A stretch of 64,000 nt of DNA, from assembly GCA_043801965.1 (NCBI GenBank), contig JAZDLN010000029.1, positions 1,587 to 65,586 of the forward strand, written 5' to 3'. The stretch comes from Candidatus Falkowbacteria bacterium (GTDB lineage: Bacteria > Patescibacteriota > Patescibacteriia > Patescibacteriales > UBA12075). The notes below the pieces were generated by a model, which saw nothing but the letters and a program-made list of their open reading frames with translations, was not told the origin of the DNA and ran no database searches. The first letter of the stretch is position 1. Each line of letters starts with the position of its first letter. Shown piece after piece: positions 15,383-64,000 of this stretch. Position numbers and translations under genes: made by a program.

Positions 15383-15427
15383 AACTTGATGTTTCTGGTT
15401 GAATACTTAATATATTATACCACAAAA

Positions 15428-15460
15428 ATCAAAAACCACAGCATAACTGTGGTTTTTGAT
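15428..15460. terminator. Intrinsic terminator downstream of the KH-domain gene (functional on the minus strand)
   Basis: Perfect 14-bp stem ATCAAAAACCACAG-N5-CTGTGGTTTTTGAT with T-rich flanks on both strands. Confidence 0.7.
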
Positions 15461-15479
15461 TTATTTGATTTGTTTGATA

Positions 15480-44552: not shown

Positions 44553-44585
44553 TGAATTCTAACTAAATATTTCGTATTAACATAA

Positions 44586-44613
44586 AGAACCGGGTTCTAC
44601 CCGGTTCTTTTTT
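44586..44613. terminator. Intrinsic terminator between convergent gyrA and the 384-aa ORF
   Basis: AGAACCGGGT-TCT-ACCCGGTTCT followed by T6. Confidence 0.75.
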
Positions 44614-44629
44614 ATGATGTGTGTTTTAA

Positions 44630-50644: not shown

Positions 50645-50785
50645 AATAATAAATTATTAAATAAATTATAACTTAATTATATAATAATTAAGCTGGTACG
50701 GCAAACGCCCGCGCGAAAATATCGCTTAAGCATAATATTATAAAACCCGCTCGTTTTTGGAGCGGGTTTTATGTTAAAAAATAAT

Positions 50786-51559
50786 TTACTTTTTTTCTCT
50801 CTGCCTGACCGCCTCATAAACTATGATAGCCGCGCTTACGGAAGCGTTAAGCGAATCGATTTTCCCTTTCATCGGGATTTTTATCTTTTTATCGGCCGCC
50901 TTAAACCAGGTTTCGCTCAAACCTTCGTGTTCGGCGCCGATGACTATAGCCGTCGGTCCCCGATAATCCGGTTCCGTGTAGAACATGTCAGTCTCGGGCG
51001 CGGCGGCTAAAATATTTATTTTATTTTTTCTAAGCCAGTGCATAACCTCATTAGCGGAACTAACCGCTGTCTGGACGGCAAAAACGGTTCCCCGGCTGGC
51101 GCGGATAACGTTCGGGTTGTAAATATCGGTCTTGGGATCGGTTACTATGACAGCGTCCGCTCCGGCGGCATCCGCCGTTCGAAGGATCGCGCCCAGGTTG
51201 CCTGGTTTTTCCACTGTTTCCAGAATGATCACAAGCGGATTCCCGGATAACCGAACCTCGCCCAATTTTAAATATCCCGGCCTGGCCAGCATAAGCCACC
51301 CGTCCGGATTTTCGCGCAAGGAAATCTTTTTGAATATTTCCGGGGTAGTTTCAAAAAGTTCGATTCCGGCTGGAAAAACCGGCGGCATCCCGTATTCCGG
51401 ACAGAAAAAAAACGCTTCGGGTTTTAATCCGGCGGCCAACGCCATTTCCGTTTCCTTTTTTCCCTCGACTATTATAAGATCTTCCTCCCGCCTCTTGCCT
51501 GCCTTGCGCAATTTTATTACTTCTTTGATCTTCGGATTTTGCGCGCTTGTAATTCGCAT
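50786..51559 (-). CDS. TrmH/SpoU-family RNA 2'-O-methyltransferase
   Basis: LETVEKPGNLGAILRTADAAGADAVIV...IPMKGKIDSLNASVSAAIIVYE. Confidence 0.85.
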   Translation of the reverse strand: MRITSAQNPKIKEVIKLRKAGKRREEDLIIVEGKKETEMALAAGLKPEAFFFCPEYGMPPVFPAGIELFETTPEIFKKISLRENPDGWLMLARPGYLKLGEVRLSGNPLVIILETVEKPGNLGAILRTADAAGADAVIVTDPKTDIYNPNVIRASRGTVFAVQTAVSSANEVMHWLRKNKINILAAAPETDMFYTEPDYRGPTAIVIGAEHEGLSETWFKAADKKIKIPMKGKIDSLNASVSAAIIVYEAVRQREKK

Positions 51560-51570
51560 ATGCTTCTCGC

Positions 51571-52263
51571 TTAATATTTAGTGTTGTTGCTGTTTTTTGT
51601 CCGGTTCTTTTTGTTTTCCAAAAGATAAACAACGTAAGAATAAACCACCGTCCCCAATAAAATAAAGATCATGTCGGCCATAAAGAGGGGCGCGCGCCAG
51701 GAAACCGGCATCCAGTTCATTGCCAAGAAAACCAGTCCGGCCAGCATGAATATTTTTCCTCCGAACCGGTGGGTTTTATTCCAGACCTCCTCCGAGGAGA
51801 GGGTCCAGGGGGTGCGGATCCCCATAAACCAATTAGGTTTTATCTTGCCCATATAATTACCAAGCAAAATAAATAAAACGCCGACCATGCCCGGCACCCA
51901 TAATCCGATATTAATATCGCCCCCCAAGGCGCTAAAAGAGGTAAGAAAATAAATAATCGCCATGAACGTCACGATAAAACCTTTGAATACGTGATATACT
52001 TTTCGAAACTGCTCGTACCTGTCCTTTTTCGGATCAAGGTAGGGAATTCCTAAAAATAATAAATACATTCCTAATATAACGATTGGAATCAAGAACGCTC
52101 CGACCCAGCGCGAACCCCAGCCATCGATCTCGCCAGCCGCGTTCCAGTGCATCGGCACGCGTTCCGGAAAATGGGCATAAAAATAAAAAGAAGAAATTAC
52201 GGCCGCGGCCACACCCAAAACGGGGATTATTTCGGTTTTAACGGTAGGTTTGATAGGATTCAT
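51571..52263 (-). CDS. SdpI/YhfL-family membrane protein (DUF1648 + SdpI)
   Basis: MHWNAAGEIDGWGSRW and GNYMGKIKPNWFMGIRTPWTLSSEEVWNKTHRFGGK. Confidence 0.75.
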   Translation of the reverse strand: MNPIKPTVKTEIIPVLGVAAAVISSFYFYAHFPERVPMHWNAAGEIDGWGSRWVGAFLIPIVILGMYLLFLGIPYLDPKKDRYEQFRKVYHVFKGFIVTFMAIIYFLTSFSALGGDINIGLWVPGMVGVLFILLGNYMGKIKPNWFMGIRTPWTLSSEEVWNKTHRFGGKIFMLAGLVFLAMNWMPVSWRAPLFMADMIFILLGTVVYSYVVYLLENKKNRTKNSNNTKY

Positions 52264-52269
52264 ATGATT

Positions 52270-52533
52270 TTATTTTTTAAAAAATTTAATTAATTTTTCC
52301 GCCACTTCCTCGAACACGCTTAAATTAAGCGAGTATATGAGGTTTTGGCCCTCCCGCCGAAAAGTGACAAGATCGGCCTGTTTCAGTATGTTAAGGTGGT
52401 GCGATAAAGAGGGCGGGGTAATAGAAAAATTTTTAGCGATTTCTGAAACGCCCGAATCTTTCTTTTTAAGTATCTCGAGGATTTTAAGCCTGGTCGGATC
52501 GGCTAGGGCGTGCATGGTTTTACTTAATGTCAT
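52270..52533 (-). CDS. ArsR/SmtB-family (SdpR-like) transcriptional regulator
   Basis: ALADPTRLKILEILKKKDSGVSEIAKNFSITPPSLSHHLNILKQADLV. Confidence 0.85.
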   Translation of the reverse strand: MTLSKTMHALADPTRLKILEILKKKDSGVSEIAKNFSITPPSLSHHLNILKQADLVTFRREGQNLIYSLNLSVFEEVAEKLIKFFKK

Positions 52534-52633
52534 TTTAATATAATTAGATATTTAGACAACTATCTAAATTATATCATATAAATATTTTTTGTCAAGACAC
52601 GAAAAAACCGTTCACTGGGGAACGGTTCTGTTT

Positions 52634-52822
52634 TTATTTTTTTGTTTCTTTTTTAAACTTCTTAAAATAACAGCGTTCGCAGCGCGCCACGCAATCGAGT
52701 CCGTAGACGACGCATCGGCCGCATATTATTTTTTGGCAGTCTTCGCATCGAAGCGGCTGGCGCGCGCCTGCCTGGTTCCGGCCCGGCGGCGCTCCGCAAA
52801 AAAAACAACGATCGGTTTTCAT
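52634..52822 (-). CDS. Cys-rich zinc-ribbon-like mini-protein
   Basis: MKTDRCFFCG...LRCEDCQKIICGRCVVYGLDCVARCERCYF has 10 Cys, mostly as CxxC pairs. A terminator hairpin AACCGTTC...GAACGGTT lies at about 52604-52630 on the minus strand. Confidence 0.5.
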   Translation of the reverse strand: MKTDRCFFCGAPPGRNQAGARQPLRCEDCQKIICGRCVVYGLDCVARCERCYFKKFKKETKK

Positions 52823-52846
52823 TCCGCCTCCCAACTGGTCCGGCGA

Positions 52847-54325
52847 TTATTTAAACATCATCTCTTTGGTATAAAAATCGACTGGCGCGTAATCATCGGT
52901 TAAAGCCGGCAGGTCGGAATCAAGATCTTCCGTCCAGATATTTTTTAAAGAATCGTTGATTTCCCGGTCGTCGCTATTAAAAAATATTTTCTCCGTTTTT
53001 TTTGTGGCTATAAGAATAATATTTTGCCGCTCCGCGGGATCGCTGCCTTTATGCACGGCGAACAGAAATACCTGCGGAAAAATCTCTTTGTAGGTTGCCA
53101 GCTCCGCCCGCAGGAATTTTCCCTTATCGCCCTTGAAGGCTGAGATCAAATTAAGAACAACCACGCCGTCATCGGACAGTGAGTCATAGATTTTTTGTAC
53201 CGCCTCCCGCGTGGTCAACTGGAAAGGGATCGAAATATGGGAATTAAACGCGTCAAGATAAATATGGTCATAGGCCGCTTTATTCCGGTTTAAAAATATG
53301 CGGCCGTCTTCGTTAAAGACTTCGATTCTCGGATCATCCCGGTAATAAAAATACTGCCGCGCCAAGTCGATAAGCCTGCCGTCAAGTTCGACCACGTCCA
53401 TTTCCGAATCAGGGTTCCTTAAAATATAATCACGGGGAAAAGTGAATATCCCCCCGCCAACGAGAAGCGCGCGGTCCGCCCGGGGATTAAAATGCTCCGC
53501 GACGTGGAAAAATTTAAGATAATCAAAAACCATCTCGTCCGGATTATCCGTATAAACCGCCGCCTGGGTTCCGAAGGGATCGGTTTTAATTACTCTGATC
53601 GGCCGGCCGTTATGTTCCCGATCGTATATCCAGTAACGGTTATAAGCCGTGTCAACATCGACCATTCCGGGATAAGCGGTTACGGCTAGACTGCCGGTAT
53701 AAAATATGATCGAGGCTACGGCCAGTATGGAAATTTTTTCTATCCAAAAACGCCGGCCGGAGATCATTAAAGCGGTTACGGCCAGGATAAGAGCGAGAAT
53801 CCAGAGAACCAAAGTGGTGCCGAAACGCGGAATAAGCCAAAAACCGGCCGCGAATGTGCCGGCGATACTGCCGATGGTGGATATCGCGTATAAACGTCCG
53901 ACCACGCCGCCGCTTTGATCAAGCGACCGCAATTTAAGCCTAACCGCGTAAGGCGTCGCCATTCCCAGAAACGCGCTTCCGGGCGCGAAGAGGACTATCG
54001 CCGCCAAAATGCTTCCTGAATTGATGGACAACGCCATCCCATCCAGTAATACCAGAAATAAATCCTTGCCGGAGGCGGTTAATCCGATAAAAAAAGCCGC
54101 GGCCCCCAGGACCGCCGCCAGCACTTTTAGATCCTGGCGCCTATCAGCCAGCTTTCCGCCGATGAAATAACCCAGGCTCAGGCTTCCCAGGATTATCCCG
54201 ATAAGACTTGTCCAAACGACGAGCGATGTTCCGAGGTAAGGGGCCAATACCCGCGCGCCCGCGATCTCGAAGATCATGCCGGCCGCGCCGGTTATAAATA
54301 AGATTACTTCCAAAACTATTTTCAT
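52847..54325 (-). CDS. Fused polytopic membrane domain + spermidine-synthase-like (aminopropyl/methyl-transferase fold) protein
   Basis: About 7 N-terminal TM helices, then ALLVGGGIFTFPRDYI ... YDHIYLDAFNS, typical of spermidine synthase family proteins. Confidence 0.7.
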   Translation of the reverse strand: MKIVLEVILFITGAAGMIFEIAGARVLAPYLGTSLVVWTSLIGIILGSLSLGYFIGGKLADRRQDLKVLAAVLGAAAFFIGLTASGKDLFLVLLDGMALSINSGSILAAIVLFAPGSAFLGMATPYAVRLKLRSLDQSGGVVGRLYAISTIGSIAGTFAAGFWLIPRFGTTLVLWILALILAVTALMISGRRFWIEKISILAVASIIFYTGSLAVTAYPGMVDVDTAYNRYWIYDREHNGRPIRVIKTDPFGTQAAVYTDNPDEMVFDYLKFFHVAEHFNPRADRALLVGGGIFTFPRDYILRNPDSEMDVVELDGRLIDLARQYFYYRDDPRIEVFNEDGRIFLNRNKAAYDHIYLDAFNSHISIPFQLTTREAVQKIYDSLSDDGVVVLNLISAFKGDKGKFLRAELATYKEIFPQVFLFAVHKGSDPAERQNIILIATKKTEKIFFNSDDREINDSLKNIWTEDLDSDLPALTDDYAPVDFYTKEMMFK

Positions 54326-54380
54326 GTGACGCTTGTGTCCGCTTTTTTCGCGGCTTTGTTAAATTTTATTTAACCGGGAG

Positions 54381-55649
54381 CTATCCGAACATGATCCATC
54401 CCGGCTTGAACAAAAGCAATAGCCCGATAACAAGCATAATAATGCCGCCGATCGCGTTCGACCAGCGGGTATAACGCGAGCTTATAGCTTTCATCCGCAG
54501 GGTGAACATGGCGATAAAGAAGATTAAAAGATCGTCCAGCATGAAGATCAGTATATAAAGAAGAAGATATCCGTAATATTGCCAGGACGGCAATCCGGCC
54601 AAGGCGATTACCTGGGTATAGACCGCGGGCAATCCGGCGGAGCAGACGAGTTCGACAAGGTTAACGGCCGCGGCCAGTAAGATAATTCCGGATAAAGCCA
54701 ATACGAATTTCTTTTCCAACACTATCGTCCGCAGTTTATCGAAAACTTTTTTTCTTTTTTCATTATCGGTAACGCGACAGGTTCCGTCCCGGTGGCGGTA
54801 ATAATCATAAAGATGGTAGCCGCCGCTTAAGAGGGCTATCAAGCCGACGACCGCCCTGATCCAGGTGACAAAACCTAAAAACAGGAAGAGGTTGAGCCAG
54901 GCCGCCAGAAAAAGGAAATAAACCGCGCCGGAAACCGCGATAAAAACCGTTCCCAGTATCCACATCCGTTTTTTGTTTTCCATCCCCAAAAGCAGGCTGA
55001 TTAAAAACAAAAGCACCCACATCGCGCAAGGATTAAAGCCGTCGGCGGCGGCGATAATAAAAGTTAAAAGCGGCAAAGACAGGTTTTTTACTTCGACTTC
55101 TCCCAGTATCGGTATATTGACCCGATCGGGAATTTCTTTCTTTACGTCGGTCTCGCAACCGCAGTTGTGGATACATTCCGCGTCTCCCGGGTCGCAACCA
55201 TGGATACACTGTCCGTTGTCCGGACCGGGTAGATCGTTAAGAAGCGGCGCTACGATATCGTTGCAGCCGTTTTTTATGTGATCAAAAACTATCGACTTAA
55301 TTTCAGCGCCCGTGGTTTCTTCGTTGTAATATCCGGAAACAGTTTCGTCGCCGATAATAAGAAAGGGGACCCCGGAAACGGTTAAATTAAGTTCTTTGGC
55401 GATACTGGATAAAAGTCTGGCGTTATCCCGGTCTTTCCAGACTTCGTAGCGCTTAATTATGATATTGGAATTATCTTCTTCCAGCTTATCTAAAAGCTTC
55501 TCCTCTTTAGCGCAATGCGGACAGCCGTCGCCATAAAAAAAATAAAGATAAACCTTATTGTCCTGGGCTAAAACAGGATTAAACGCCGTCAACAGAAAAA
55601 AGCCAATTATAATCAAATTGATCGCTTTTTTTAATTTAAATTTCATCAT
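54381..55649 (-). CDS. Thioredoxin-fold (CPHC) domain fused to a Cys-rich linker and a CcdA/DsbD-like thiol-disulfide transporter membrane domain
   Basis: YLYFFYGDGCPHCAKEE, linker CIHGCDPGDAECIHNCGC, and membrane core AADGFNPCAMWVLLFL. The start is uncertain (Met codons at 55649/55646). Confidence 0.7.
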   Translation of the reverse strand: MMKFKLKKAINLIIIGFFLLTAFNPVLAQDNKVYLYFFYGDGCPHCAKEEKLLDKLEEDNSNIIIKRYEVWKDRDNARLLSSIAKELNLTVSGVPFLIIGDETVSGYYNEETTGAEIKSIVFDHIKNGCNDIVAPLLNDLPGPDNGQCIHGCDPGDAECIHNCGCETDVKKEIPDRVNIPILGEVEVKNLSLPLLTFIIAAADGFNPCAMWVLLFLISLLLGMENKKRMWILGTVFIAVSGAVYFLFLAAWLNLFLFLGFVTWIRAVVGLIALLSGGYHLYDYYRHRDGTCRVTDNEKRKKVFDKLRTIVLEKKFVLALSGIILLAAAVNLVELVCSAGLPAVYTQVIALAGLPSWQYYGYLLLYILIFMLDDLLIFFIAMFTLRMKAISSRYTRWSNAIGGIIMLVIGLLLLFKPGWIMFG

Positions 55650-55791
55650 AAAAATTAAAGAAAAACCTTCTATTATCATACTATTATTTATCCCTTTTGA
55701 CAATTCCGGAAAATAAAGGACCCCGTTTCTTGGAAACAGGGTCCTTTAGGCTTAAAGAAGGGGCCCGATTGGGCTTTTATATAAACTTTTA

Positions 55792-56787
55792 TTAATCTCC
55801 GGAATCGTTTTTTACCGCTTCTCTTCTTTCTTTTATAAGCTCGCGATTAACCCAGAATATCCAGCTGATCACGGCCAGTAAAAATACGATAAATATGATC
55901 GCGTTTAAATTAAGTTTTCCCTGGCTTTCTTCTTTTTCGTTTATCGCCCCCGTCGAATCGGTATTTTCAGCGTCCCGGTTGATCAAGGCTTCGATCTCCG
56001 CGATTTCTTCGGACGCGGCCGCTTCGGAAACTTTTCCAGGGTTGGTGTTTTCGGTATCATCCGGGAATTCAAACTCTGCCGCCGCCACCATGGGGCCAGA
56101 TGATTCTTTTGGGCGACCGACGGTAAAATAAACGATATTCGACCACGCGCTTTCCTTGCCTGATTTATCGGTTGCTACGCTATACGCCATGTGGCGGCCC
56201 TCCGTAAGAGGTAAGAAGGGTAAATAAGCAAAATCGGTTGTACCTGAATTATGGTTTTTTACGTCAAATTCCCCGAAAAACTTTTTATCAATAAATATTT
56301 TAACCCTGGAATCATTTTTCGCCAATCCGATGATATACGGTTTTTCAAAATTCGTACTGCTGTTAACCACCGGCTTAAAAAGCGTCGGGGCGGGGAACGG
56401 AAGCTCTATGGAGAACCTGAGGGTTTTTGATATTTGACTCTTGCTTCCCCGGCTGTCTTTAGCAACGGCCCAGACTGTGTGCTCGCCTACGCTTAAATTC
56501 AGGAATGGATCATAGGCGAAGTCGGCTGTACCGGAGTCGTCCTTAAGAATTCCGGTCTGGCCGTTATATATCCCGTCGATATAAATATAAACCGCGGTGC
56601 CGCTTTTTGTTAAGCCGGTTATCTTTGGTTTTGCCCGGCCTATTTTTTTGTACTCATCCGGCCCGATAAGCGTCGGCGCCGGCGGTACCGCTCCGGCGCT
56701 ATTATCCGCTGCTTCGACCGGATTTATCAGAAAAAGACTTAACCCTAAAAACATTAAAATAAAAAAATATTTGCCATATCGCAACAT
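55792..56787 (-). CDS. Secreted protein with two Ig-like repeats and a C-terminal TM anchor
   Basis: Signal peptide. Duplicated ~95-aa unit (PKITGLTKSGTAVYIYIDG...SGTADFAYDPFL / PYIIGLAKNDSRVKIFIDK...SGTTDFAYLPFL). C-terminal IIFIVFLLAVISWIFWV. Confidence 0.65.
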   Translation of the reverse strand: MLRYGKYFFILMFLGLSLFLINPVEAADNSAGAVPPAPTLIGPDEYKKIGRAKPKITGLTKSGTAVYIYIDGIYNGQTGILKDDSGTADFAYDPFLNLSVGEHTVWAVAKDSRGSKSQISKTLRFSIELPFPAPTLFKPVVNSSTNFEKPYIIGLAKNDSRVKIFIDKKFFGEFDVKNHNSGTTDFAYLPFLPLTEGRHMAYSVATDKSGKESAWSNIVYFTVGRPKESSGPMVAAAEFEFPDDTENTNPGKVSEAAASEEIAEIEALINRDAENTDSTGAINEKEESQGKLNLNAIIFIVFLLAVISWIFWVNRELIKERREAVKNDSGD

Positions 56788-56854
56788 AGATATCGTGCCT
56801 CCTTGAATTTATTTAGCCTTGTCTCGTATTTAAATTATTTTATATTAAGATAAC

Positions 56855-56917
56855 GCGCTAGGGTTAAGGGGAAACGAATCAGGAAAACCCGACAAAACGC
56901 CCCCTTAACCCTAGCGC
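56855..56917. repeat. Perfect 17-bp inverted repeat with a 29-nt A-rich spacer in the promoter region of the Ig-like protein gene
   Basis: GCGCTAGGGTTAAGGGG (56855-56871) / CCCCTTAACCCTAGCGC (56901-56917). Confidence 0.85.
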
Positions 56918-57140
56918 AAAAATCTGATGAAATCACGCCTTTTCTGAATTTAAAAAAACCGATCCTATCGGTATTTCTACTTTATCTCCGTGCTATACTT
57001 AGGGTCAAGTACATAACCCGTTCATAGGCTGTGTTTAACCCTGTTTTTTCAGTGGATAAGGCTGTGTAATAATCATATTTTTAGTTAAACCACTTTGGGC
57101 GATATTATCTACTATTGTCCTGTTAATAACCTCCGGATAA

Positions 57141-57503
57141 CTAAAAAACGTCTTTATAATGCTTAATATTAGCTCTTTTATTTACACGATTAATATCGAT
57201 GGTTATAAGATCAAGTTGAATTTCGTCCGGATCTATATCGCTTTTTACGGCGTAGAGTTTAAGGGCCCGCATTAAATTATTTATTTTACGGCGGCTGAAA
57301 TTTTCCTCGGCTAATCCCGGTGCGCCCGAAATCCGGGTTTTTACTTCCACTATTATGGTTTTTTCTTTTACTTTAGCGATAATATCAATTTCTTGATAGC
57401 TGGTTTTAGTGTTCCGACTGATGATCTGATATTTTTTTCGTTTTAAATATTCTACGGCCAGATCTTCGCCATATTGTCCGATTTTTTGTTTATAATTCAT
57501 CAT
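57141..57503 (-). CDS. yraN: YraN-family (UPF0102) endonuclease-like protein
   Basis: GQYGEDLAVEYLKRKKYQIISRNTKTSYQEIDIIAKVKEKTIIVEVKTR. Confidence 0.85.
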   Translation of the reverse strand: MMNYKQKIGQYGEDLAVEYLKRKKYQIISRNTKTSYQEIDIIAKVKEKTIIVEVKTRISGAPGLAEENFSRRKINNLMRALKLYAVKSDIDPDEIQLDLITIDINRVNKRANIKHYKDVF

Positions 57504-57574
57504 AACGATGATCCGTTTTTTAAAAACAGCAGAAAAATCTGCTGTTTAAATAATCTTGATATAAGCTTAAATTA

Positions 57575-57961
57575 CTATGGTATGTATTTTTTGAATTCCT
57601 GTTCTTTCTCTTTTTCTTCCTTGATCTTCGGGATAGTTAAAATGTGGCGCATTATAAAGACGAACCAGACCAGCATGCCGATTGCCCAAAGTAAAACCAG
57701 TATTCTGGCCGATAAAAAGGGAATCAATTCATAAGTAAAAAATAAAAACATCAATCCCAGAAAAAAATTCGTCAGAAAAAAAGAACTGAACCTCTGCCAT
57801 ATTTTCGTGTAAAGGCTCTTTTTCCGATTCTTTACTAAATAGGAAATAAAGGCGCCGACCAGCATCGCGCCGATAAAAATAACGAATACTTTAAACGAAA
57901 TCGTACTAAGTGCTTCTGGTCTGGTGTTCAGCCAGAATTTTATGCTTAAAAAATTACTCAT
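57575..57961 (-). CDS. Integral membrane hypothetical protein
   Basis: 128 aa with three TM helices. No motif recognised. Confidence 0.5.
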   Translation of the reverse strand: MSNFLSIKFWLNTRPEALSTISFKVFVIFIGAMLVGAFISYLVKNRKKSLYTKIWQRFSSFFLTNFFLGLMFLFFTYELIPFLSARILVLLWAIGMLVWFVFIMRHILTIPKIKEEKEKEQEFKKYIP

Positions 57962-57983
57962 AAATTAGGTAGATTATAATTAA

Positions 57984-58538
57984 TTATGATTTTGTAAAAA
58001 TAAGTCCGTAATGGTAATGTCCGGCAAAAAATTCTTCTTCAAATTCAAGGCCTAAGCGAGGGCCGCTTTTTATTAATGCGTCTTTATTGACGCGTTCTTC
58101 TGCCGGGGGACCGAAGGGCAGAGCGATATTTTTCCATTCAACAATTATGAGTTTACCGCCCTTTTTTATCAGCCGGACTGATTCGCGGATTATTTCCGCC
58201 CGTTTGTGGGATTGGTAAAGAGTATTAACCAGAAGAGCGACGTTTAGGCTTCCAGATTCTATTTTAGTGGCCTTGAATGTTTCAATATTACTCCAAACGG
58301 TGATTATATTCTTTACGTTGTCATACTTTATCCGTCGGTTAATGGTTTCCAGTACGGTTTTTAATATATCTACCGCGTACACAAGTCCTTTCTCGCCGAC
58401 CATAGAGGAGGCCGGGAAAACAAAGTGCCCGGTCGAGCCGCAGCCTAAATCGGCCACTTTCATGCCTTCGCCTATTTCCGCTTTATTTAAAATCACCTTA
58501 ACGTCCAATAATTTATCCCCGCCAGTGATATTATACAT
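57984..58538 (-). CDS. Class I SAM-dependent methyltransferase
   Basis: Motif I VADLGCGSTGHFVFPAS; post-I and motif II regions are consistent. Confidence 0.7.
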   Translation of the reverse strand: MYNITGGDKLLDVKVILNKAEIGEGMKVADLGCGSTGHFVFPASSMVGEKGLVYAVDILKTVLETINRRIKYDNVKNIITVWSNIETFKATKIESGSLNVALLVNTLYQSHKRAEIIRESVRLIKKGGKLIIVEWKNIALPFGPPAEERVNKDALIKSGPRLGLEFEEEFFAGHYHYGLIFTKS

Positions 58539-58552
58539 AAAAACTTGGATTG

Positions 58553-59260
58553 TTAATTCTCCTTGATTACACTATTATTATAGTTAATTTTTTTATTATT
58601 AACAAGGATTAAAGGAGATTTTAAAATATTATCTGTATTGTTATAGAATTTCCTTATTGGTTCAAAGCTTTTCCGATGAAGGGGGCAGGGGCCGTGCTTC
58701 GCTAATTGTTCCATGTGGAATTTTGTTCCATAGCCCTTGTGCTTATCAAACCCGTATTCCGGATATTTTTTGTGATTTGCGATCATAAGCCGGTCGCGCG
58801 TGACTTTAGCTATTATTGAAGCGGCGGCAATGGAAAAAACAAGGTTATCTCCGCCGATGATCGCTCTTTGCTTTAAGCTGGTATTAGGAATCGGAAATTT
58901 TCCGTCCAGCATTATGAATTCCGGCTTATTCTTAAGCACGCCGATCGCTTTTTTCATGGCCAAAAGCGATGCCTGGAATATATTGATTCTGTCTATGGTT
59001 TCCTGGTCGCAAGTCCCGACGCCGACCTCATAAGTATTCTCCTGGATAAGTCCAAAAAGCTTTTCCCTTTTCTTTTCCGTGAGCTTTTTCGAATCCTTTA
59101 CGTCTTTAAGGATCTCCATGTTGATTTTATGATCGCGTTCGCAAATAACGCAGGCGGCCACGACCGGCCCGGCTAAAGGCCCCCGTCCGGCTTCGTCCAG
59201 TCCGCCCACGAACCTATACCCCAGCGTGAATAAATTTTCTTCTTCTTTAAGGTCAAGCAT
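58553..59260 (-). CDS. rnhB: Ribonuclease HII
   Basis: VGGLDEAGRGPLAGPVVAA, DSKKLT and ASIIAKVTRD. Confidence 0.9.
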   Translation of the reverse strand: MLDLKEEENLFTLGYRFVGGLDEAGRGPLAGPVVAACVICERDHKINMEILKDVKDSKKLTEKKREKLFGLIQENTYEVGVGTCDQETIDRINIFQASLLAMKKAIGVLKNKPEFIMLDGKFPIPNTSLKQRAIIGGDNLVFSIAAASIIAKVTRDRLMIANHKKYPEYGFDKHKGYGTKFHMEQLAKHGPCPLHRKSFEPIRKFYNNTDNILKSPLILVNNKKINYNNSVIKEN

Positions 59261-59522
59261 AATTCAATTAAACATAAAAGGTTTTATCATTGCAAACCTT
59301 AGCAACTCCCTGTTATAATACAAGTAAGCCCCAGCGGTCTTTTGGCTGAAATTACGAATCCGCCTTTCCCTGGCAAATTTCTCAATTAGATCCTTGTTTG
59401 AATTAATTAATTTCCCAACACAAAGCTTGGTACCAAGAAGTTAATAAACATATTTTAACTAATTTTTAAATAAACAGCAATAAGTTAGCTCATCCCGCGG
59501 CCGTTGTGTAAAATAAAAAATT

Positions 59523-59735
59523 ATGACAAGCAGGTTAAAATTTTTTTATGATAGAATACCGTTTATTTGTTTTTTAATATCAATCTATTCTTGGTTTTTC
59601 CCGGTATGTGATGTGGGGAGCTTCCTCCCGAATCCTGGTTGTATTTTTTTAATTCTAATTTTAAGATTCATCTTTCCATTATTTGGAATAGTATTTATTG
59701 TAGATCATAGAAATAAAAAAAGAGAGATAAAATAA
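59523..59735 (+). CDS. Possible small hydrophobic protein (doubtful)
   Basis: 70-aa ORF with two hydrophobic segments in a very AT-rich spacer. No RBS is evident. Confidence 0.2.
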   Translation: MTSRLKFFYDRIPFICFLISIYSWFFPVCDVGSFLPNPGCIFLILILRFIFPLFGIVFIVDHRNKKREIK

Positions 59736-59857
59736 TTTTTTTACATCAAACAACACCGCGATACGCGGCCTCGTCACTTCTTCGGGTCTGCGGCCCTGCG
59801 GAGAGAACTCGCCCTAACTTTTAAAAAAATTTTGTTTACTATTTTATTTTGACTCGT

Positions 59858-60583
59858 ATGAAATGTAAGTTGTGCGAAAAAGAATTTGATAAATTAGCTG
59901 AGTCACACATTTTAGCGAAAGGATTTTTTCGTTATATGTACCCAAAAGATGACAACCGTGCATTTCTTTCATCAAATGGAAAAAGTAGACCAAAAAGAAT
60001 ACGTACTGGTTATTATGATAATGAAATTCTATGCATAGAGTGTGATAATAATCTTGGAAAATATGACGATTATGCAATAAGTGCATTTACACGAAAAAAA
60101 ATTGTCCCTTTTCCAAATTCTGACCAAGCCTATTTAATGAATAATGTTATTTATTCAAAATTAAAAATGTTCTTTTTATCACTACTATACAGGGCGTCAA
60201 TTACTTCACGTGAGGAATTTTCCTTGATTAATCTAGGAGAACACTACGAAAAAACACTCAAAGAAATGATTATAAAAGAAGATATTGGCGAGTTTAATGA
60301 TTTTCCGTTTATTATTGCTAAATTTGAAACAGCTCAACTCCCCCAAGATATTGCAGATAAATCCTTAATGAGCCCATATCGTACAAAAATAGACAATATT
60401 AATTTTTCAGTTTTTCGCATTCCAGGTGGTTATCAGGCTTACATTAAAGTTGACAAGAGACCACTTGATGATTTATTTAACCAACTGGCAATAAAAAGAG
60501 ATGGCAACTTAATTATAATTCGTAGAGAAAATTTTGAATCGTCAAAAGAGTTTAAAGCTATGTGCGACGTAATAATAAAATAA
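59858..60583 (+). CDS. Hypothetical protein with N-terminal CxxC...H...CxxC metal-binding-like module
   Basis: MKCKLCEKEF...SHILAKGFF...ILCIECDNNLG. Very AT-rich codon usage, unlike the core genes. Confidence 0.5.
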   Translation: MKCKLCEKEFDKLAESHILAKGFFRYMYPKDDNRAFLSSNGKSRPKRIRTGYYDNEILCIECDNNLGKYDDYAISAFTRKKIVPFPNSDQAYLMNNVIYSKLKMFFLSLLYRASITSREEFSLINLGEHYEKTLKEMIIKEDIGEFNDFPFIIAKFETAQLPQDIADKSLMSPYRTKIDNINFSVFRIPGGYQAYIKVDKRPLDDLFNQLAIKRDGNLIIIRRENFESSKEFKAMCDVIIK

Positions 60584-60711
60584 AATTCTTTTTAAAAGTG
60601 ATTTGCATTCGCAAATCTAAGAAAAACATATACATCAGTTAACAACGAGTATCCGGTTCCGATCCCGTAGCTTCGAGACGGCCAGTGAAAGAAAATTTAA
60701 ATTTTTTTAGT

Positions 60712-61146
60712 ATGATACCAACCGACGGCGCGAAAGCGTTTATAATAAATTCTAAAGACAACAAGTTTTTACTCGTATTAAGGGATAACGTTCCTAACAT
60801 TCCCAATCCAAACTGTTGGAGTCTTTTGGGCGGGGGAATTGAGCAAGGCGAAAAACCCGTAGATGCGCTTAAAAGAGAAATTCTTGAAGAAACAAATATC
60901 GAAATATACAACATTAAACAAATAGACACGATAGACGTTTTATTAACTGTTAATGATAAACAATATACAGTTACTGGGTACATATTTTTTGCGCACACAG
61001 ACGCCAAGCTTAGCGATATAAAAATATATGAGGGTCAAAAAGTTGGCTATTTCACTTATGATGAAATTAAAAACATGAAAAATATTGCACCCGGTGCTTT
61101 AAGTTTGATAGAAAAATACGAAAAACTATTCAAATCAAGAATTTAA
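60712..61146 (+). CDS. NUDIX hydrolase
   Basis: Nudix box GGGIEQGEKPVDALKREILEETNI. The start is ambiguous (GTG at 60685 or ATG at 60712). Confidence 0.8.
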   Translation: MIPTDGAKAFIINSKDNKFLLVLRDNVPNIPNPNCWSLLGGGIEQGEKPVDALKREILEETNIEIYNIKQIDTIDVLLTVNDKQYTVTGYIFFAHTDAKLSDIKIYEGQKVGYFTYDEIKNMKNIAPGALSLIEKYEKLFKSRI

Positions 61147-61240
61147 ATTTTCTTTCACAGTCTCCGTCCCAAATTTTATTACCAAATTAATTTTATAAGG
61201 AGTAATAAAACTTCAGATATCTCTCGCGTTCCGCAAAATC

Positions 61241-61374
61241 GCTCCGCCCTCGCTAACCCGCCTGCGCCAACCTGTCTACCGGCAGGCAGGAACAAAAACA
61301 AAAATTTAATTCTTTTTAAAAATGCCCCACAACTCTGCGGGACAAAGAAAAAGCTCCACGCATTAGCGAGGAGC
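61241..61374. repeat. 134-nt GC-rich imperfect palindromic element (attC-like geometry) between NUDIX and CPBP genes
   Basis: Outer arms are GCTC[CGCC]CTCGCTAA (61241-61256) and TTAGCGAGGAGC (63-74 of 613xx, i.e. 61363-61374), which is 12 bp plus a 4-nt bulge. The inner GC-rich segment CTGCGCCAACCTGTCTACCGGCAGGCAGG recurs at 62148-62176. Confidence 0.6.
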
Positions 61375-61408
61375 CTTGAGCATTGATTATATAACTGTTT
61401 TAATGGAT

Positions 61409-62056
61409 TTAGCATAACCGTTTCCGATTCCATCTTACCTTGTGCCAAAGAGACGTAACGCCTAGGGTGGCAAGCATCACTATGAGCATGATGATTTGAA
61501 GCACGGCAGGCATGATCAAGTTCCATGCCGAGTGAATTCCGAAGGCCACCCAGACAGACTGATACTTGATGCCGTAGTACCCGGCCAAGATACCGAGAGG
61601 AAACGTGAGGACAACATGGAACACTTTACGCGCCATAACCATCTTGCCTTCCTCTGCGCGGAGTCGATCCACCTCGTCCGCCACATTGTCTGATTTGTGC
61701 TCGCCGTTCTCGCGAACGGAGAAGATGTCCAGTATACAGATTTTATTCCCGAACCAGTGCATAAGCGCAAATAATGCGCTTGAAGCGAAGATGCCGTACC
61801 ATGCGACTGAGGAGATCGCACTAAAAGCGATAATAAGCGGTGCTCGGAAAATGAGCTCTTCTACAGCGGGTGCCCACAAGCTGACCGAGGGCGTACCAAC
61901 GGACCAGGCAACCTTGCGTTTGTTCCTCTCGTGCCATTCGACACTCTTAAAGTTTTTACCGAACCGCTTGATGATCAGCTTCAAGTAAAGAAGTGTGACA
62001 CCGGCAATACCCGCGAGAATGAAAACCGATGGCATGAATTCATAGATTCTTTCCAC
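61409..62056 (-). CDS. CPBP-family (CAAX-type) intramembrane glutamic endopeptidase
   Basis: AVEELIFRAPL, FALMHW and HSAWN motifs on a polytopic membrane scaffold. Visibly GC-richer than both flanks. Confidence 0.8.
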   Translation of the reverse strand: MERIYEFMPSVFILAGIAGVTLLYLKLIIKRFGKNFKSVEWHERNKRKVAWSVGTPSVSLWAPAVEELIFRAPLIIAFSAISSVAWYGIFASSALFALMHWFGNKICILDIFSVRENGEHKSDNVADEVDRLRAEEGKMVMARKVFHVVLTFPLGILAGYYGIKYQSVWVAFGIHSAWNLIMPAVLQIIMLIVMLATLGVTSLWHKVRWNRKRLC

Positions 62057-62130
62057 TTTATCCCTCCCTAGTTAAGGTTCAATATATCAGCGATTTTTAC
62101 TGATTTTTTAGTATAACATATTATCTTATC

Positions 62131-62198
62131 CGAGTCAAGCTCGGCGACTGCGCCAATCTGCCTGCTGGTAGGCGGGCGGCCGAGGGCAAGCCCTCGTC
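62131..62198. repeat. GC-rich structured repeat upstream of the HIT gene
   Basis: CCGAG-TCAAG-CTCGG. CTGCGCCAATCTGCCTGCTGGTAGGCGGG matches 23/29 with 61262-61290. Palindrome CGAGGGC-AA-GCCCTCG. Confidence 0.6.
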
Positions 62199-62231
62199 TG
62201 TTATATGAAAAATTTATTATCCCTTTAATTT

Positions 62232-62564
62232 ATGAATGATAAACATGACTTTTACTGTGAAGAAGTAATTTCTGGTAAAACGCCAATCGAAAAATTATAT
62301 GAATCGAATAATATTTTAGCTTTTTACCATACACGTCCGTCTTATAAAATTCACATAGTAATTACTTCAAAAAAACATATTCTCGATTTGCCTTCGGTGG
62401 CTGATGAAGAACTTACTATTCTAAATGAAATTATAAATGTGGCTCGTGATTTATCTAAGAATTTGAATAAGAAAGATGGCATCCGTTTAATTACTAACGC
62501 GGGAAAGTTCCAGGATTCACCACATATTCACTTTCATTTGGTGGCTGGTGAAAAGCTAAAATAA
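62232..62564 (+). CDS. HIT-family (histidine triad) protein
   Basis: C-terminal HIHFHLVAG (H-x-H-x-H-x-x), and size and order typical of Hint-like proteins. Confidence 0.8.
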   Translation: MNDKHDFYCEEVISGKTPIEKLYESNNILAFYHTRPSYKIHIVITSKKHILDLPSVADEELTILNEIINVARDLSKNLNKKDGIRLITNAGKFQDSPHIHFHLVAGEKLK

Positions 62565-62654
62565 TAGTTATAAATTGAATAATAAATTCATCATATAATA
62601 GCGGGTAAGCCCTCGTTCAATAGGCGACATATTTTTAGTGGGCTATAAGAAATT

Positions 62655-63104
62655 ATGAAAAAGGAAATTATTCGCCAAATACAAAGAAAAGTAATTGTAT
62701 TGTTGCGTAAAAATAATAATAAACCGCTCTACCTAACGTCAGTCGACAGCTGCAGTGAAGTTGCCCGTCTGGCTGGTTGCTGGATTTTTGAAAAATTGCC
62801 CCAAGTAAAAATATATATTCTAAAGGGTAAAAACGTTAAAAACACAAAACGGTGTCACGATATTTTAGCGATAGAGCAAAATTTCATTATTGATCTTATT
62901 GATCCAACGATATGGCAATTTTTTAAAAATAAAAAGAGTATTCATATTAAAACTACGGACAATTTGGCGAATGGTTTATTAGAAGCTGCAAAATTATATG
63001 GTGGTAACTGGAAAATTTCCGAAGAATTTAAAGTTAGCGATTATAAAAAAGCTGAACTTCAAAAAATTGTAGCTTCTAATATAAAGGAGTTAAATAAAAA
63101 ATAA
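62655..63104 (+). CDS. Hypothetical protein
   Basis: 149-aa ORF with AT-rich codon usage. No motif recognised. Confidence 0.5.
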   Translation: MKKEIIRQIQRKVIVLLRKNNNKPLYLTSVDSCSEVARLAGCWIFEKLPQVKIYILKGKNVKNTKRCHDILAIEQNFIIDLIDPTIWQFFKNKKSIHIKTTDNLANGLLEAAKLYGGNWKISEEFKVSDYKKAELQKIVASNIKELNKK

Positions 63105-63182
63105 AACATTATGTACAGCGGGCAAGCACCTCCACTAAAGGCTGACAAACTGTTTAGTAAAATATTATTTTAATCAATTTTT

Positions 63183-63779
63183 ATGGCTTACAATCTCCTT
63201 TTAAATAACAAGGTGTTTCATTTTGCCGAGAGCGGCCTTCCTTGTCTCGTGCATTACAAAAATAAAACAGGCGGTTCGCATTTCACGGTTACACTGGTCG
63301 CTGATATGTTTTTGCGAGGATCAAAGATATTGTTTCTGACCGCTTATCCGATGGCCAAAGATAATTTTTTTGAGCAAACAAAAGGAAAGGAATCTAAAAT
63401 ATTTTTTGTCGAAACAAAAGACGATTTTAAAAAAGCCAAAGAATATCAGGCAATAATTCTTAAAAGCGGCGATGGTAATTTATACTTAGAAGCGCTTAAA
63501 TCGTTGCCGGATCTAAACGAAAGAGTTGTACTGGTAAAAAATTTCGAGGTTTTTGATAAAAATATTTTAGACGAGTCATTAAAACTTGAAAAAATTATCG
63601 TTTCCGGGGATATCGATAAAAGTTCATCGAAAAAACTAATCGCCGATAAGCTCTACAAAACAATAATTTCCTTTTCCCAACCCGAAACGTCCGTGTCGTT
63701 TATTACACCGGCTCTTCTAAAATACACTGGCTATTTAAAAACCGCTGACAAGGAAGGGTTTGTGAAATTAGAAATGTAA
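63183..63779 (+). CDS. Hypothetical protein (possibly a degenerate P-loop-like fold)
   Basis: 198-aa ORF. YKNKTGGSHFTVTLVADMFL and VVLVKNFE loosely recall decayed Walker A/B positions. This is a very tentative reading. Confidence 0.45.
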   Translation: MAYNLLLNNKVFHFAESGLPCLVHYKNKTGGSHFTVTLVADMFLRGSKILFLTAYPMAKDNFFEQTKGKESKIFFVETKDDFKKAKEYQAIILKSGDGNLYLEALKSLPDLNERVVLVKNFEVFDKNILDESLKLEKIIVSGDIDKSSSKKLIADKLYKTIISFSQPETSVSFITPALLKYTGYLKTADKEGFVKLEM

Positions 63780-63837
63780 TTATTCCCGCAATTAAGAAAA
63801 AATCTATTTTACAAAATAATTCTTAATTAAATAAATA

Positions 63838-64000
63838 TGGCCAACAAAAAGAAATTTAAATTGTCTGCCGTAATTATTATCGCGCTGGTAATTTTTCTAA
63901 TTATATTCTTGTTTTTTAGGCAAAATAAAATCACTCCGCCGGCGCCGCCGATACTGCCGGCGCCGCCAGCCGCGGAAATAAGTATCTCCACGGATAAAAA
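63838..64000 (+). CDS. N-terminal part of a membrane-anchored, Pro-rich protein (3' end outside the window)
   Basis: ATG at 63838. MANKKKFKLSAVIIIALVIFLIIFLFF then PPAPPILPAPPAAE. The frame is open to the window edge. Confidence 0.5.

Follow-up and report, generated by a model that had tools for sequence, protein, structure and literature searches.

The closest described systems are integrons, Xer/dif loci with the elements that exploit them, Acinetobacter pdif modules and REP/BIME repeats. In sedentary chromosomal integrons (e.g. the Vibrio superintegron) and CALINs, a recombinase gene diverges from an attI-like site behind which co-oriented cassettes of one ORF each are lined up; a few are reversed, and toxin-antitoxin pairs occur among them. 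The site at the end of each cassette is an imperfect palindrome: its boxes are R''(..AAC)/R'(GTT..) and L''/L', its unpaired spacers are asymmetric, one base is bulged, and the terminal structure varies. The structure of these sites is conserved and their sequence variable, the bottom strand is the stabler one, the junction lies at GTT, and the R' remainder at the start of a cassette complements the R'' at its own end. Such arrays can lose their integrase. Canonical integrases need the IntI-specific insertion for folded attC sites. Xer-like recombinases serve Xer/dif, IMEXs (CTX-phi, TLC), XerS/difSL, XerH/difH and archaeal XerA/dif; CTX-phi and TLC hijack Xer at the Vibrio dif, and xerS adjoins difSL. 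The pdif modules are small gene modules that have Xer-type sites at their borders and are reshuffled among replicons; their sites alternate in orientation, are plain 28-bp duplexes and lie on plasmids. REP/BIME repeats are short, GC-rich and palindromic; they lie between genes, in DNA that is richer in AT, and are found behind many genes throughout a genome.

Positions 59261-64000 of a 64,000-nt stretch of a Candidatus Falkowbacteria contig (the window), read together with related loci, are probably the fossil cassette array of a non-canonical, integron-like gene-capture platform of Patescibacteria. We found no description of such a system in the literature. The integron traits listed above recur in these loci, including arrays that have lost the recombinase. 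The recombinase itself belongs to the Xer-like type: it scores best as XerA (NF040815, 249 bits, above cut-off), falls below the TIGR02249 cut-off and is devoid of the ~45-aa IntI-specific domain, so the platform is not a canonical integron. Unlike those of integrons, the sites are long (97-205 nt), with a conserved CCCAAAT-hairpin and 12-nt R boxes that carry two invariant mismatches, and the core of the attI-like site is dif-like, symmetric and 28 bp long. The host is a patescibacterium, and the window's own sites have decayed. As in xerS/difSL, an 11-6-11 core site adjoins the recombinase gene; as in IMEXs, integrated elements form tandem arrays, and the incoming partner may, like CTX-phi attP(+), imitate the core site as a folded single strand. 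Unlike in pdif modules, the sites are co-oriented, paired half-sites with covarying stems, in one chromosomal array with the recombinase gene at its head. The intergenic repeats look like REP/BIME in length, GC-rich palindromic character and AT-richer surroundings, but they are confined to arrays. The initial annotation, which had proposed an integron-like cassette array, was essentially right, and the tests that it had named as able to overturn it came out in its favour: the hotspot is variable, its units are modular, the repeats are array-confined, and a recombinase or its remnant lies alongside. Its ORF-plus-site array stands, but the recombinase is Xer-like and the annotated GC blocks are only parts of sites.

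The array lies between conserved flanks. On the left, rnhB (RNase HII; 58553..59260, minus strand; Pfam RNase_HII 3e-44) belongs to a stretch (50001-59486) that is collinear with the sister Falkowbacteria contig L001 at 88% nucleotide identity. On the right, collinearity resumes with the 5' region and start of a Pro-rich membrane protein gene (63799..64000, plus strand), 86% identical to L001 4476-4275. Between 59486 and 63799, the window (4.3 kb) and L001 (5.3 kb) carry different small co-oriented ORFs, and L020, another sister contig with collinear flanks, holds a third version, the gene content being almost entirely different. The comparison with sister genomes suggested earlier thus reveals polymorphism instead of conserved synteny, and does so unit by unit: L020 also has the ORF70 unit and L059 the CxxC unit, and a His-phosphatase unit that closes the L001 array opens that of L020.

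By composition count, the GC content of 59261-64000 is 0.357 versus 0.461 for 1-59260. The segment is AT-rich as had been noticed, but comparable stretches occur in the same window at 25-27 kb, 41-42 kb and 57-58 kb. It consists of seven small unrelated ORFs, located as annotated and separated by spacers with GC-rich blocks; cassette ORFs have a GC content of 0.27-0.36, with the exception of the reversed CPBP gene (0.50). Pfam confirms the NUDIX (8.6e-14), Rce1-like/CPBP (1.3e-13) and HIT (8e-13) identities. The CxxC, 149-aa, 198-aa and 70-aa ORFs have no family match. The 70-aa ORF, previously called doubtful, is real, with a 76%-identical copy in a related array.

No intact tyrosine recombinase gene was found in the window. 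The earlier statement that no tyrosine recombinase is recognisable holds for an intact gene but not for a 40-codon pseudogene remnant at 59279..59398 (minus strand), which corresponds to L007 protein residues 14-53, in the N-terminal SAM-like domain of the array's recombinase (45% over 40 aa by tblastn against the 64-kb window, E 3e-5). L001 retains this remnant too, interrupted by an in-frame stop. A recombinase is expected at this place, as the gene is intact between rnhB and the array in L007, L032, L051/52 and L055/56. In more distant relatives it encodes 283 aa, diverges from the array and adjoins, with its 5' end, a dif-like site of 28 bp. Recombinase and divergent array also occur together in L053, L057 and L062, giving at least three unrelated genomic contexts (rnhB, TrxB, a glycosyltransferase operon). 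The gene was lost from the lineage of the window, L001 and L020. Because the window and L001 have this deletion in common and their arrays are entirely different, a trans-acting enzyme or whole-array replacement is required, each as a candidate. The recombinase has no IntI-specific insertion, so its recombination of folded DNA is putative. Patescibacteria encode its family in very large numbers (7919 hits), and this family may include, or be, the housekeeping Xer (the 'Cand' subgroup, a Xer substitute according to Smyshlyaev et al., PMC8138268).

The remnant contains a promoter-like TTGCAA-18-TGTTATAAT directed into the array (59290..59319, plus strand; 10/12 match with TG extension), whose hexamers are also readable in L001 and L020. 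Judged from its sequence, this is a possible Pc analogue, and it could instead belong to rnhB regulation. An AT-rich stretch, the attI flank, is conserved before the first site in all relatives (59435..59482; 94% identical to L001). The first site, S0 (59483..59514, plus strand; nhmmer match), is attI-like and reads AGTTAGCTCAT-CCCGCGGCC-GTTGTGTAAAAT. Homology to L001 ends within it, at 59486, and the ORF70 unit common to L020 begins at 59502/3, directly 5' of GTT. In relatives, S0 has 11-6-11 geometry with arms ACTTCGCATAT and TTATGCAAAAT, similar to what we take to be the dif arms, and a TTTTAACTAATTTTTAAA-type motif adjoins the recombinase start in L007, L029, L032, L051, L055 and L057.

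Relatives with an intact recombinase reveal the anatomy of the sites: each cassette ends in a 97-205-nt attC-like element, ordered R''(..AAC)-L''-variable hairpins-L'-R'(GTT..). RNAalifold finds the L''/L' helix unaided, with 6/10 pairs compensatory. This helix is 92% paired, both sides change in 7/12 pairs, and none of 500 shuffles reaches its covariation score. The L''/L' complementarity is 8.8 for own versus 4.7 for non-own boxes (p<5e-5). A covariance model scores 28-99 bits on sites outside its training set that lie behind cassette ORFs of L055, L059 and L062. Folded as single-stranded DNA, the sites have z of -2.6 to -6.0; the bottom strand, which the initial annotation had recommended folding, is the stabler one in all three sites tested. 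When half-site models (HMM trained on relatives only) were searched over 0.69 Mb (691 kb) of loci, matches lay inside such arrays and in array orientation, a few weak exceptions (E ~2 or more) aside; the repeats are therefore not the genome-wide kind that had been considered.

In the window, the clade-specific covariance model detects half-sites but nothing complete. Its best match, at 61161-61213, is partial (17.6 bits, E 2.4), and just one half-site is significant by the half-site HMM (60632-60659, E 5.4e-4). The six annotated GC blocks have a GC content of 0.46-0.71, above that of the surrounding ORFs, and are central L''-like boxes or fragments of larger decayed sites, not whole attC sites. 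Their description as internally palindromic holds weakly: five of six spacers folded as single-stranded DNA are no stabler than shuffles (z -0.3 to -1.6), the sole other being 62120-62225 (z -2.1). The right half of block 61241-61374 consists of two terminators of the reversed CPBP gene, and the hairpin at 60600-60617 is a plain terminator. The words shared among blocks are genuine and array-confined, with zero copies in the other 59 kb of the window. The word GSGGGYAAGCMC occurs 5 times in the window, 3 of them in the array, versus 1.64 expected (1/100 shuffles reach this), and CTGCGCCAAYCTGYCT is restricted to both ends of the CPBP unit, in a 32-nt direct repeat.

The units are described in order and lie on the plus strand unless stated. 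Cassette 1 (59502..59767) comprises ORF70 (59523-59735) and its own flanks and is 90% identical in nucleotides to L020 6349-6084, versus 78.6% for rnhB; the unit opens the window's array and comes fifth in that of L020, with the junction C|GTTGTGT in both contexts. At its end, the R''+L'' half-site ACATCAAACAAC-A-CCGCGATACGCGG (59743..59768; relatives-only HMM, E 0.3), with the hairpin CCGCG-ATA-CGCGG in its fold, starts GC block 1 (59755-59817). Cassette 2 (59811..60644), with the CxxC ORF at 59861-60583, is 77% identical to L059 7033-7871, inside another array, and has a private inverted repeat (59817-59833 / 60582-60599) that covaries between the two copies. The significant half-site mentioned above, R''+L'' ACATCAGTTAACAAC-GAGTATCCGGTTC (relatives-only HMM, searched in 691 kb), starts GC block 2. 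Cassette 3 (60685..61158) encodes the NUDIX hydrolase (ATG, 60712-61146; Pfam), and its start GTGAAAGAAAATTTAAATT (60685-60703) exactly complements its end at 61140-61158, within a 22-nt, 95% inverted repeat. It is followed by a CCCAAAT-hairpin and L'-R' half-site, ACTTCAGATAT-CTCTCGC-GTTCCGCAAAAT (61168..61239; 81% identical to L001 8877-8792; nhmmer match 61210-61239). Cassette 4 (61240..62197, minus strand; Pfam, repeat and terminator searches) is reversed and carries the CPBP/Rce1-like gene at 61409-62056 (50% GC); the 32-nt repeat is common to its GC-rich ends, 61240-61290 and 62130-62197, and its terminators are at 61323-61344 and 61352-61375. The same GTTCCGCAAAATCRCTCCGCCCTC junction precedes a gene in L020 that is likewise reversed and GC-richer. 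Cassette 5 (62198..62628) encodes the HIT protein (62232-62564; Pfam). Its start CTGTTATATGAAAAATTTATTAT (62198-62220) complements 62579-62601 (score 15.5, rank 1 of 24), and an L''-like box, CGGGTAAGCCC, follows this inverted repeat in GC block 5. Cassette 6 (62655..63163), identified from the ORF list, word count and fold, combines the 149-aa ORF (62655-63104) with a short site-like element in GC block 6 (63106-63163), ACATTATGTACA-GCGGGCAAGCAC...CTGTTTAGTAAAAT, which forms a weak hairpin (-6 kcal/mol, z -0.9). Cassette 7 (63183..63779), the 198-aa ORF, is the last variable unit, bracketed by the inverted repeat 63148-63179 / 63790-63821. In general, the 70-nt flanks on the two sides of an ORF complement each other (11.3 for own versus 7.3 for non-own pairs, p<5e-5), and the own pair ranks first for 13/24 ORFs.

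Much of this could also be read as a Xer/dif locus in which S0 is the dimer-resolution site, the adjacent recombinase is the housekeeping Xer, and the cassettes are small IMEX-like elements that hijack it. We consider this joint reading unlikely. The XerA score, the missing IntI insertion and the geometry and arms of S0 in relatives (dif as presumed above) speak for it, as does a ~897-aa window ORF (37399-40092), FtsK-like by N-terminal sequence alone. So does the near-ubiquity in Patescibacteria of the recombinase family with its 'Cand' Xer substitutes (PMC8138268). However, the sign of the GC skew, taken over short flanks, is unchanged across the array in L001, L007, L053 and L055, so S0 appears not to lie at a replication terminus. 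Recombinase and array occupy several unrelated contexts, the window's lineage has done without the gene, contrary to expectation for an essential Xer, and the passengers, instead of being self-contained elements, phages or islands, are promoter-poor single ORFs that carry structured sites.

An ordinary variable islet, exchanged by homologous recombination between the conserved flanks, with terminators and local REP/MITE-like repeats as its GC blocks, is highly improbable. Such an islet would account for the plain terminators (61323-61375; 60600-60617), for the weakly structured spacers and missing complete site of the window and, through whole-array replacement, for different arrays behind a common recombinase deletion. 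It does not fit repeats that are missing from the other 59 kb and, a few weak matches aside, array-confined in the 0.69 Mb of loci, divergence that begins and ends exactly at site boundaries, single units that move independently, a private inverted repeat per unit in place of shared terminal repeats, or a recombinase or remnant that is always adjacent. There is similarly very little probability that the conserved structures between ORFs function at the RNA level, for example in processing or stabilising a polycistronic transcript, beside a coincidental recombinase. The ORF-bracketing inverted repeats do covary between orthologous cassettes, many stop codons are followed by a terminator-like hairpin, and one top-strand G-T pair is conserved in the L helix. 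Against this, the bottom strand, antisense to the ORFs, folds better in 3/3 sites tested and the structures coincide with breakpoints of unit homology; nor would RNA elements explain why units shuffle or why recombinase and S0 head the array in independent contexts.

In its intact form, which relatives display, the proposed gene-capture platform consists of a ~283-aa Xer/XerA-like recombinase gene facing away from the 28-bp dif-like S0, behind which co-oriented cassettes follow, each a small ORF with its attC-like element. The site of a circular cassette would fold as single-stranded DNA, preferentially from the stabler bottom strand, and the R''/R' and L''/L' pairing would imitate the two arms of S0. 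Strand exchange by the recombinase would take place within the R' triplet GTT or directly 5' of it; incoming cassettes would therefore be inserted beside S0, and each would begin with an R' remainder complementary to its own-end R''. In the lineage of the window, the recombinase gene has been deleted down to the 40-codon remnant, and the sites have decayed to half-sites and GC-rich fragments. The NUDIX, HIT, CPBP, CxxC and other genes persist as accessory cargo, probably read from the putative promoter in the remnant and from their own promoters.

The window segment at 59261–64000 occupies a variable hotspot. The closest genome recovered, Candidatus Falkowbacteria RIFOXYA2_FULL_47_19 (locus L001; rnhB 92% identical in amino acids), is collinear with window positions 50001–59486 at 88% nucleotide identity, and collinearity resumes at 63799–64000. 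Between these flanks the window holds 4.3 kb and L001 5.3 kb of small co-oriented ORFs, different in each, and a more distant relative (L020; rnhB 78% aa) carries a third version of the segment. The initial annotation had held that conserved synteny among sister genomes would argue against a cassette array; synteny is not conserved, and the contents differ among all three genomes. ORF70, a 70-aa ORF, together with its flanks (window 59502–59767) is 90% identical to L020 6349–6084, beside an rnhB that is only 78.6% identical between the same two genomes, and it forms the first unit of the window array and the fifth of L020. The CxxC unit (59811–60644) is 77% identical to a unit of another array, L059, and a His-phosphatase unit stands last in L001 and first in L020. 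These recurrent units, with breakpoints at the sites, are independently mobile ORF-plus-site cassettes of the kind that define an integron. The left junction of the ORF70 unit, between C and GTTGTGT, is the same behind S0 in the window, S0 being the attI-like first site at the array head, and behind another cassette in L020; crossover therefore falls at or beside GTT.

The segment is AT-rich, as the initial annotation had described it (35.7% GC against 46.1% in the rest of the window), and its ORFs lie where they had been listed, with 27–36% GC except for the reversed CPBP gene at 50%. Pfam families were matched by the NUDIX, Rce1-like/CPBP, and HIT proteins. No Pfam family was found for the CxxC, 149-aa, 198-aa, and 70-aa ORFs, and the first three had no match in NCBIfam. 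The 70-aa ORF, at first considered doubtful, is genuine: a related array contains a copy of it with 76% identity. The six GC-richer blocks reported in the spacers were recovered (46–71% GC), and the words common to them are over-represented and restricted to the array. Their description as internally palindromic did not hold: as single strands the spacers fold no better than shuffled sequences (z −0.3 to −2.1), which rules out the blocks as stand-alone attC hairpins. Half of the block placed at 61241–61374 consists of two terminators of the reversed CPBP gene. Rfam searches of the segment and the whole window (gathering and E-value modes) returned nothing relevant, tRNA scans over the same range found no tRNA, and the large ORFs elsewhere in the window (600–920 aa, five of them ~890–920 aa), considered as paralogues, are not paralogous.

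Reversed, markedly GC-richer genes with their own terminator occur once in the window (61409–62056, minus strand; CPBP, 50% GC) and once in L020 (7805–8152; a 115-aa lipoprotein-like ORF), each immediately behind a shared junction, GTTCCGCAAAATCRCTCCGCCCTCRCTAACC; the two resemble cassettes that are foreign in origin or form a special subtype. A defence role of the cassettes was considered and set aside, PADLOC giving weak hints only, with matches of the NUDIX protein (60712–61146) to PDC-S07 (3e-13), of the HIT protein (62232–62564) to ThsC (2e-5), and of the 149-aa ORF (62655–63104) to SduA/DUF4263 (E 0.004). Cassettes of the relatives include Bro-N/KilA-N, Fic, HigBA, and HicAB.

The related locus L007 (rnhB 60% aa) encodes a tyrosine recombinase of 283 aa precisely between rnhB and the array, with transcription directed away from the latter. 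A recombinase takes the same position in L032, L051/52, and L055/56, and 58–59%-identical recombinases head similar divergent arrays in unrelated contexts, namely glycosyltransferase operons (L053, L062) and a locus beside TrxB (L057). The L007 protein matches the window by tblastn at 59398–59279 on the minus strand (residues 14–53, 45% identity, E 3e-5), a remnant of 40 N-terminal codons that recurs in L001 with an in-frame stop. The 226-nt 'non-coding' stretch after rnhB is thus the wreck of the recombinase gene plus the adjoining site. The 20 mid-size ORFs scanned in the window include no intact recombinase; the earlier statement that the window has no tyrosine recombinase stands for an intact gene and missed the remnant. 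Inside the remnant and directed toward the array, a pattern match to a promoter-like TTGCAA-18-TGTTATAAT (59290–59319), kept in L001 and L020, may be an analogue of Pc.

A HigB/HigA-like toxin-antitoxin pair lies between recombinase and array in L007 (9000–8402). Copies of the attI-flank motif (9140–9075 and 8375–8306), duplicated together with the recombinase gene's first 11 nt, border the pair on both sides, which suggests insertion right at the array head. Several of the relatives' contigs break off within ~100–200 nt of where the recombinase gene starts, or shortly after entering the array (L051 (1–140), L052, and L054; ~1.7 kb in L056). The pattern is compatible with assemblies breaking where arrays are repeated or polymorphic, and MAGs may under-represent such arrays.

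The L007 recombinase scores 249 bits against the XerA model NF040815, above the cut-off, and 205 bits against the integron-integrase model TIGR02249, which it matches in two pieces and whose cut-off is 265. Aligned to VchIntIA (2a3v), it skips residues 184–235, the IntI-specific insertion. An integron integrase carries this additional domain around patch III; the array recombinase lacks it and, judged from its sequence, is not an IntI. Its family is very large in Patescibacteria and is probably the 'Cand' Xer-related subgroup of Smyshlyaev et al. (PMC8138268).

The first site, S0, adjoins the recombinase start codon after a conserved AT-rich motif and measures 28 nt in the relatives, e.g. ACTTCGCATAT-ACCTTG-TTCTACGAAAT and variants, with an 11-6-11 geometry. 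It abuts the 5′ end of the recombinase gene in L007, L051, L053, L055, and L057. Two 11-bp arms around a 6-bp centre, bound by a Xer-type recombinase, are the hallmarks of a dif core, which S0 resembles in the relatives. The window copy (59483–59514) has a longer centre and totals 32 nt. S0 holds the position of an attI beside intI, where cassettes would be inserted; ORF70, the unit most recently shared with L020, is the one that lies at S0 in the window.

Each cassette ORF of the relatives is followed by an attC-like element of 97–205 nt. The element opens with the R'' box (ACATCNNNNAAC) and, after 1–2 nt, the L'' box, continues with either one hairpin or two (with CCCAAAT...ACTT closing the second), and ends with L', a spacer of 4–9 nt, and R' (GTTNNNYGAAAT). 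RNAalifold recovered the L''/L' helix unaided (10 pairs, with compensatory changes in six of the ten). On the named structure the helix is 92% paired and both sides change in 7 of 12 pairs, with a covariation score of 0.275 against 0.147 in shuffles that none of 500 shuffles reached; slid controls are only 30–42% paired. Pairs between L'' and L' were counted by an alignment-free test, the MAFFT alignment of trimmed sites being out of register, and across 16 sites complementarity was 8.8 for own partners versus 4.7 for non-own partners (p < 5e-5). In one subtype of site, L' has one bulged base. Pairing in the R helix reaches 67%, with two invariant mismatches, an imperfection to be anticipated if R' is part of the following cassette. 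Built from nine sites, a covariance model detected sites outside its training set immediately behind cassette ORFs of L055, L059, and L062 (28–99 bits). As single-stranded DNA the relatives' sites fold with z of −2.6 to −6.0, the bottom strand being more stable in all three tested. The relatives' sites show the architecture of attC, an imperfect palindrome with R''–L''...L'–R' boxes, AAC/GTT triplets, conserved structure, a bottom strand that folds, and extrahelical bases. Rigid duplex bipartite sites of the lox/dif type were dropped as a description of the cassette sites because their spacer varies from 5 to 9 nt and a covarying partner half-site lies upstream.

L pairing is also degraded in sites of L001 and L059. 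In both L001 (5273–4547) and L020 (9727–9038), the His-phosphatase ORF lies between an R''–L'' half-site and a CCCAAAT-hairpin/L'–R' half-site, and thereby inside an otherwise single site. ORF-less stretches of 60–70% GC (L001 8810–8590, L055 ~9900–9650, window 61240–61290 and 62130–62197) consist of small hairpins together with copies of the L' arm ATTTCGCATATCCCGAGT in inverted orientation, and may represent site remnants stacked on one another, or empty cassettes.

The cassette ends carry a signature of their own. In a set of 24 cassettes drawn from four arrays, the 70-nt sequence ahead of each ORF complements the 70 nt that follow that ORF far better than it does the ends of other cassettes (11.3 versus 7.3, sd 1.4), and the own end ranks first in 13 of the 24 (permutation p < 5e-5). 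The start of the window's NUDIX unit, GTGAAAGAAAATTTAAATT (60685–60703), is the exact complement of the unit's end (61140–61158), and in the HIT unit CTGTTATATGAAAAATTTATTAT stands at the start and ATAATAAATTCATCATATAATAG at the end. Such complementarity is the outcome that integron-type insertion would yield, because the remainder of R' at the head complements R'' at the tail. The inverted repeats covary between orthologous cassettes and, unlike transposon ends, are private to each cassette, which rules out transposon-like terminal inverted repeats. In many cassettes the ORF is closely bracketed by a private inverted repeat, which in some is distinct from R'/R'' (window 59817–59833/60582–60599; L059 ~7039–7053/~7812–7826; the His-phosphatase units of L001 and L020), with compensatory changes between orthologous cassettes.

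The clade-specific covariance model found no complete site in the window, the best match being partial (61161–61213, 17.6 bits, E 2.4); a CALIN is called from at least two attC sites without intI within about 4 kb, and by this model the window has none that is complete. Half-site HMMs trained only on relatives match 60632–60659 (E 5e-4) and 59743–59768 (E 0.3), both in array orientation, and a model that includes Falkowbacteria sites also matches S0 and 61210–61239. The word GGGYAAGC, singled out early on, proved to take the place of the L'' box, immediately following an R''-like ...ATATAAT/...GTACA (62587–62612, 63106–63129; read from sequence), and the reversed CPBP unit has GC-rich ends (61240–61290, 62130–62197) that resemble the ORF-less stretches of L001 and L055. 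Taken together, partial sites, half-sites, GC-rich fragments, and degraded L pairing fit decay following recombinase loss, and the window copy of the array is a fossil. Outside the array, the site model gives weak matches between genes at 44569–44620 (minus strand) and 15426–15462 (17–19 bits, E 1.4–4.5), probably ordinary hairpin terminators.

A serious rival is a dif/IMEX system, in which S0 is a dif-like site, the enzyme is Xer-like, and the cassettes are passengers. The enzyme is indeed Xer-like, and S0 resembles dif sequences. A dif site, however, marks the replication terminus, at a switch in GC skew, and the skew does not change sign across the arrays of L001, L007, L053, and L055 (flanks of only 4–10 kb). 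The module also sits in several genomic contexts, and its recombinase gene is dispensable, having been lost in the window, L001, and L020, a loss that speaks against its being the cell's housekeeping dimer resolvase. The Xer sites of pdif modules alternate in orientation (inverted), whereas all L'–R' sites here follow the array orientation, the inverted copies being R''–L'' partners of the same spacer.

The initial annotation had offered a REP-like family or unrelated terminators as alternatives, and both are opposed by the restriction of the repeats to arrays and by breakpoints at the sites. No copies of the array repeats were found in window 1–59260, and in 0.69 Mb of loci significant matches fell only in arrays, with weak ones elsewhere (E about 2 or more); REP/BIME elements, by contrast, are dispersed genome-wide in many intergenic regions. 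An RNA-level role of the inter-ORF structures is countered by the better folding of the antisense strand and by the DNA breakpoints. In almost all respects the architecture is that of sedentary chromosomal integrons and CALINs. Canonical integrons, by the criteria of IntegronFinder and Messier & Roy 2001, have an IntI domain; the array platform thus works like an integron but falls outside the canonical family, since the defining IntI domain is absent and the attI is dif-like.

When intact, the system most likely operates as an integron does. A circular cassette would fold its own site so that R''/R' and L''/L' mimic the two arms of S0, the recombinase would exchange strands at GTT, and new cassettes would enter at S0. 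Deletion of the recombinase predates the split between the window and L001, because the same remnant is found in both. Their arrays differ despite this common remnant, and ORF70 looks recently exchanged; differing arrays behind a common deletion would call for either a paralogue acting in trans or whole-array replacement by homologous recombination.

All results are computational and refer to the loci fetched for comparison. We tentatively propose, at slightly less than an even chance, that Patescibacteria harbour a widespread natural 'Xer-type integron', in which a recombinase without the IntI I2 domain and a dif-like attI handle single-gene cassettes through folded attC-like sites. Such a system would be a living intermediate between Xer/dif and the integron, or an independent reinvention, and the window would represent its decayed, recombinase-less state. 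Our literature search found no description of such arrays in Patescibacteria.

Integron integrases presumably descend from Xer-like duplex recombinases through acquisition of a single helix, I2, which lets them handle folded single-stranded sites (Escudero et al. 2016, 2020; PMC4792948, PMC7790495). The arrays described here combine a Xer-like enzyme without the I2 insertion, sites that follow the attC logic in full, and an attI resembling dif; should the enzyme truly recombine these sites, the origin of integrons would become directly testable with natural components. Integron-type gene capture would then extend to the Candidate Phyla Radiation, whose systems would be missed by tools that require the IntI domain, on which IntegronFinder 2.0 and the archaeal integron study depend. 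The arrays appear to be a main accessory-gene depot of these tiny-genome symbionts, holding nucleotide-metabolism enzymes, toxin-antitoxins, and possible defence genes, and the window is a record of the decay that such an array undergoes after losing its recombinase.
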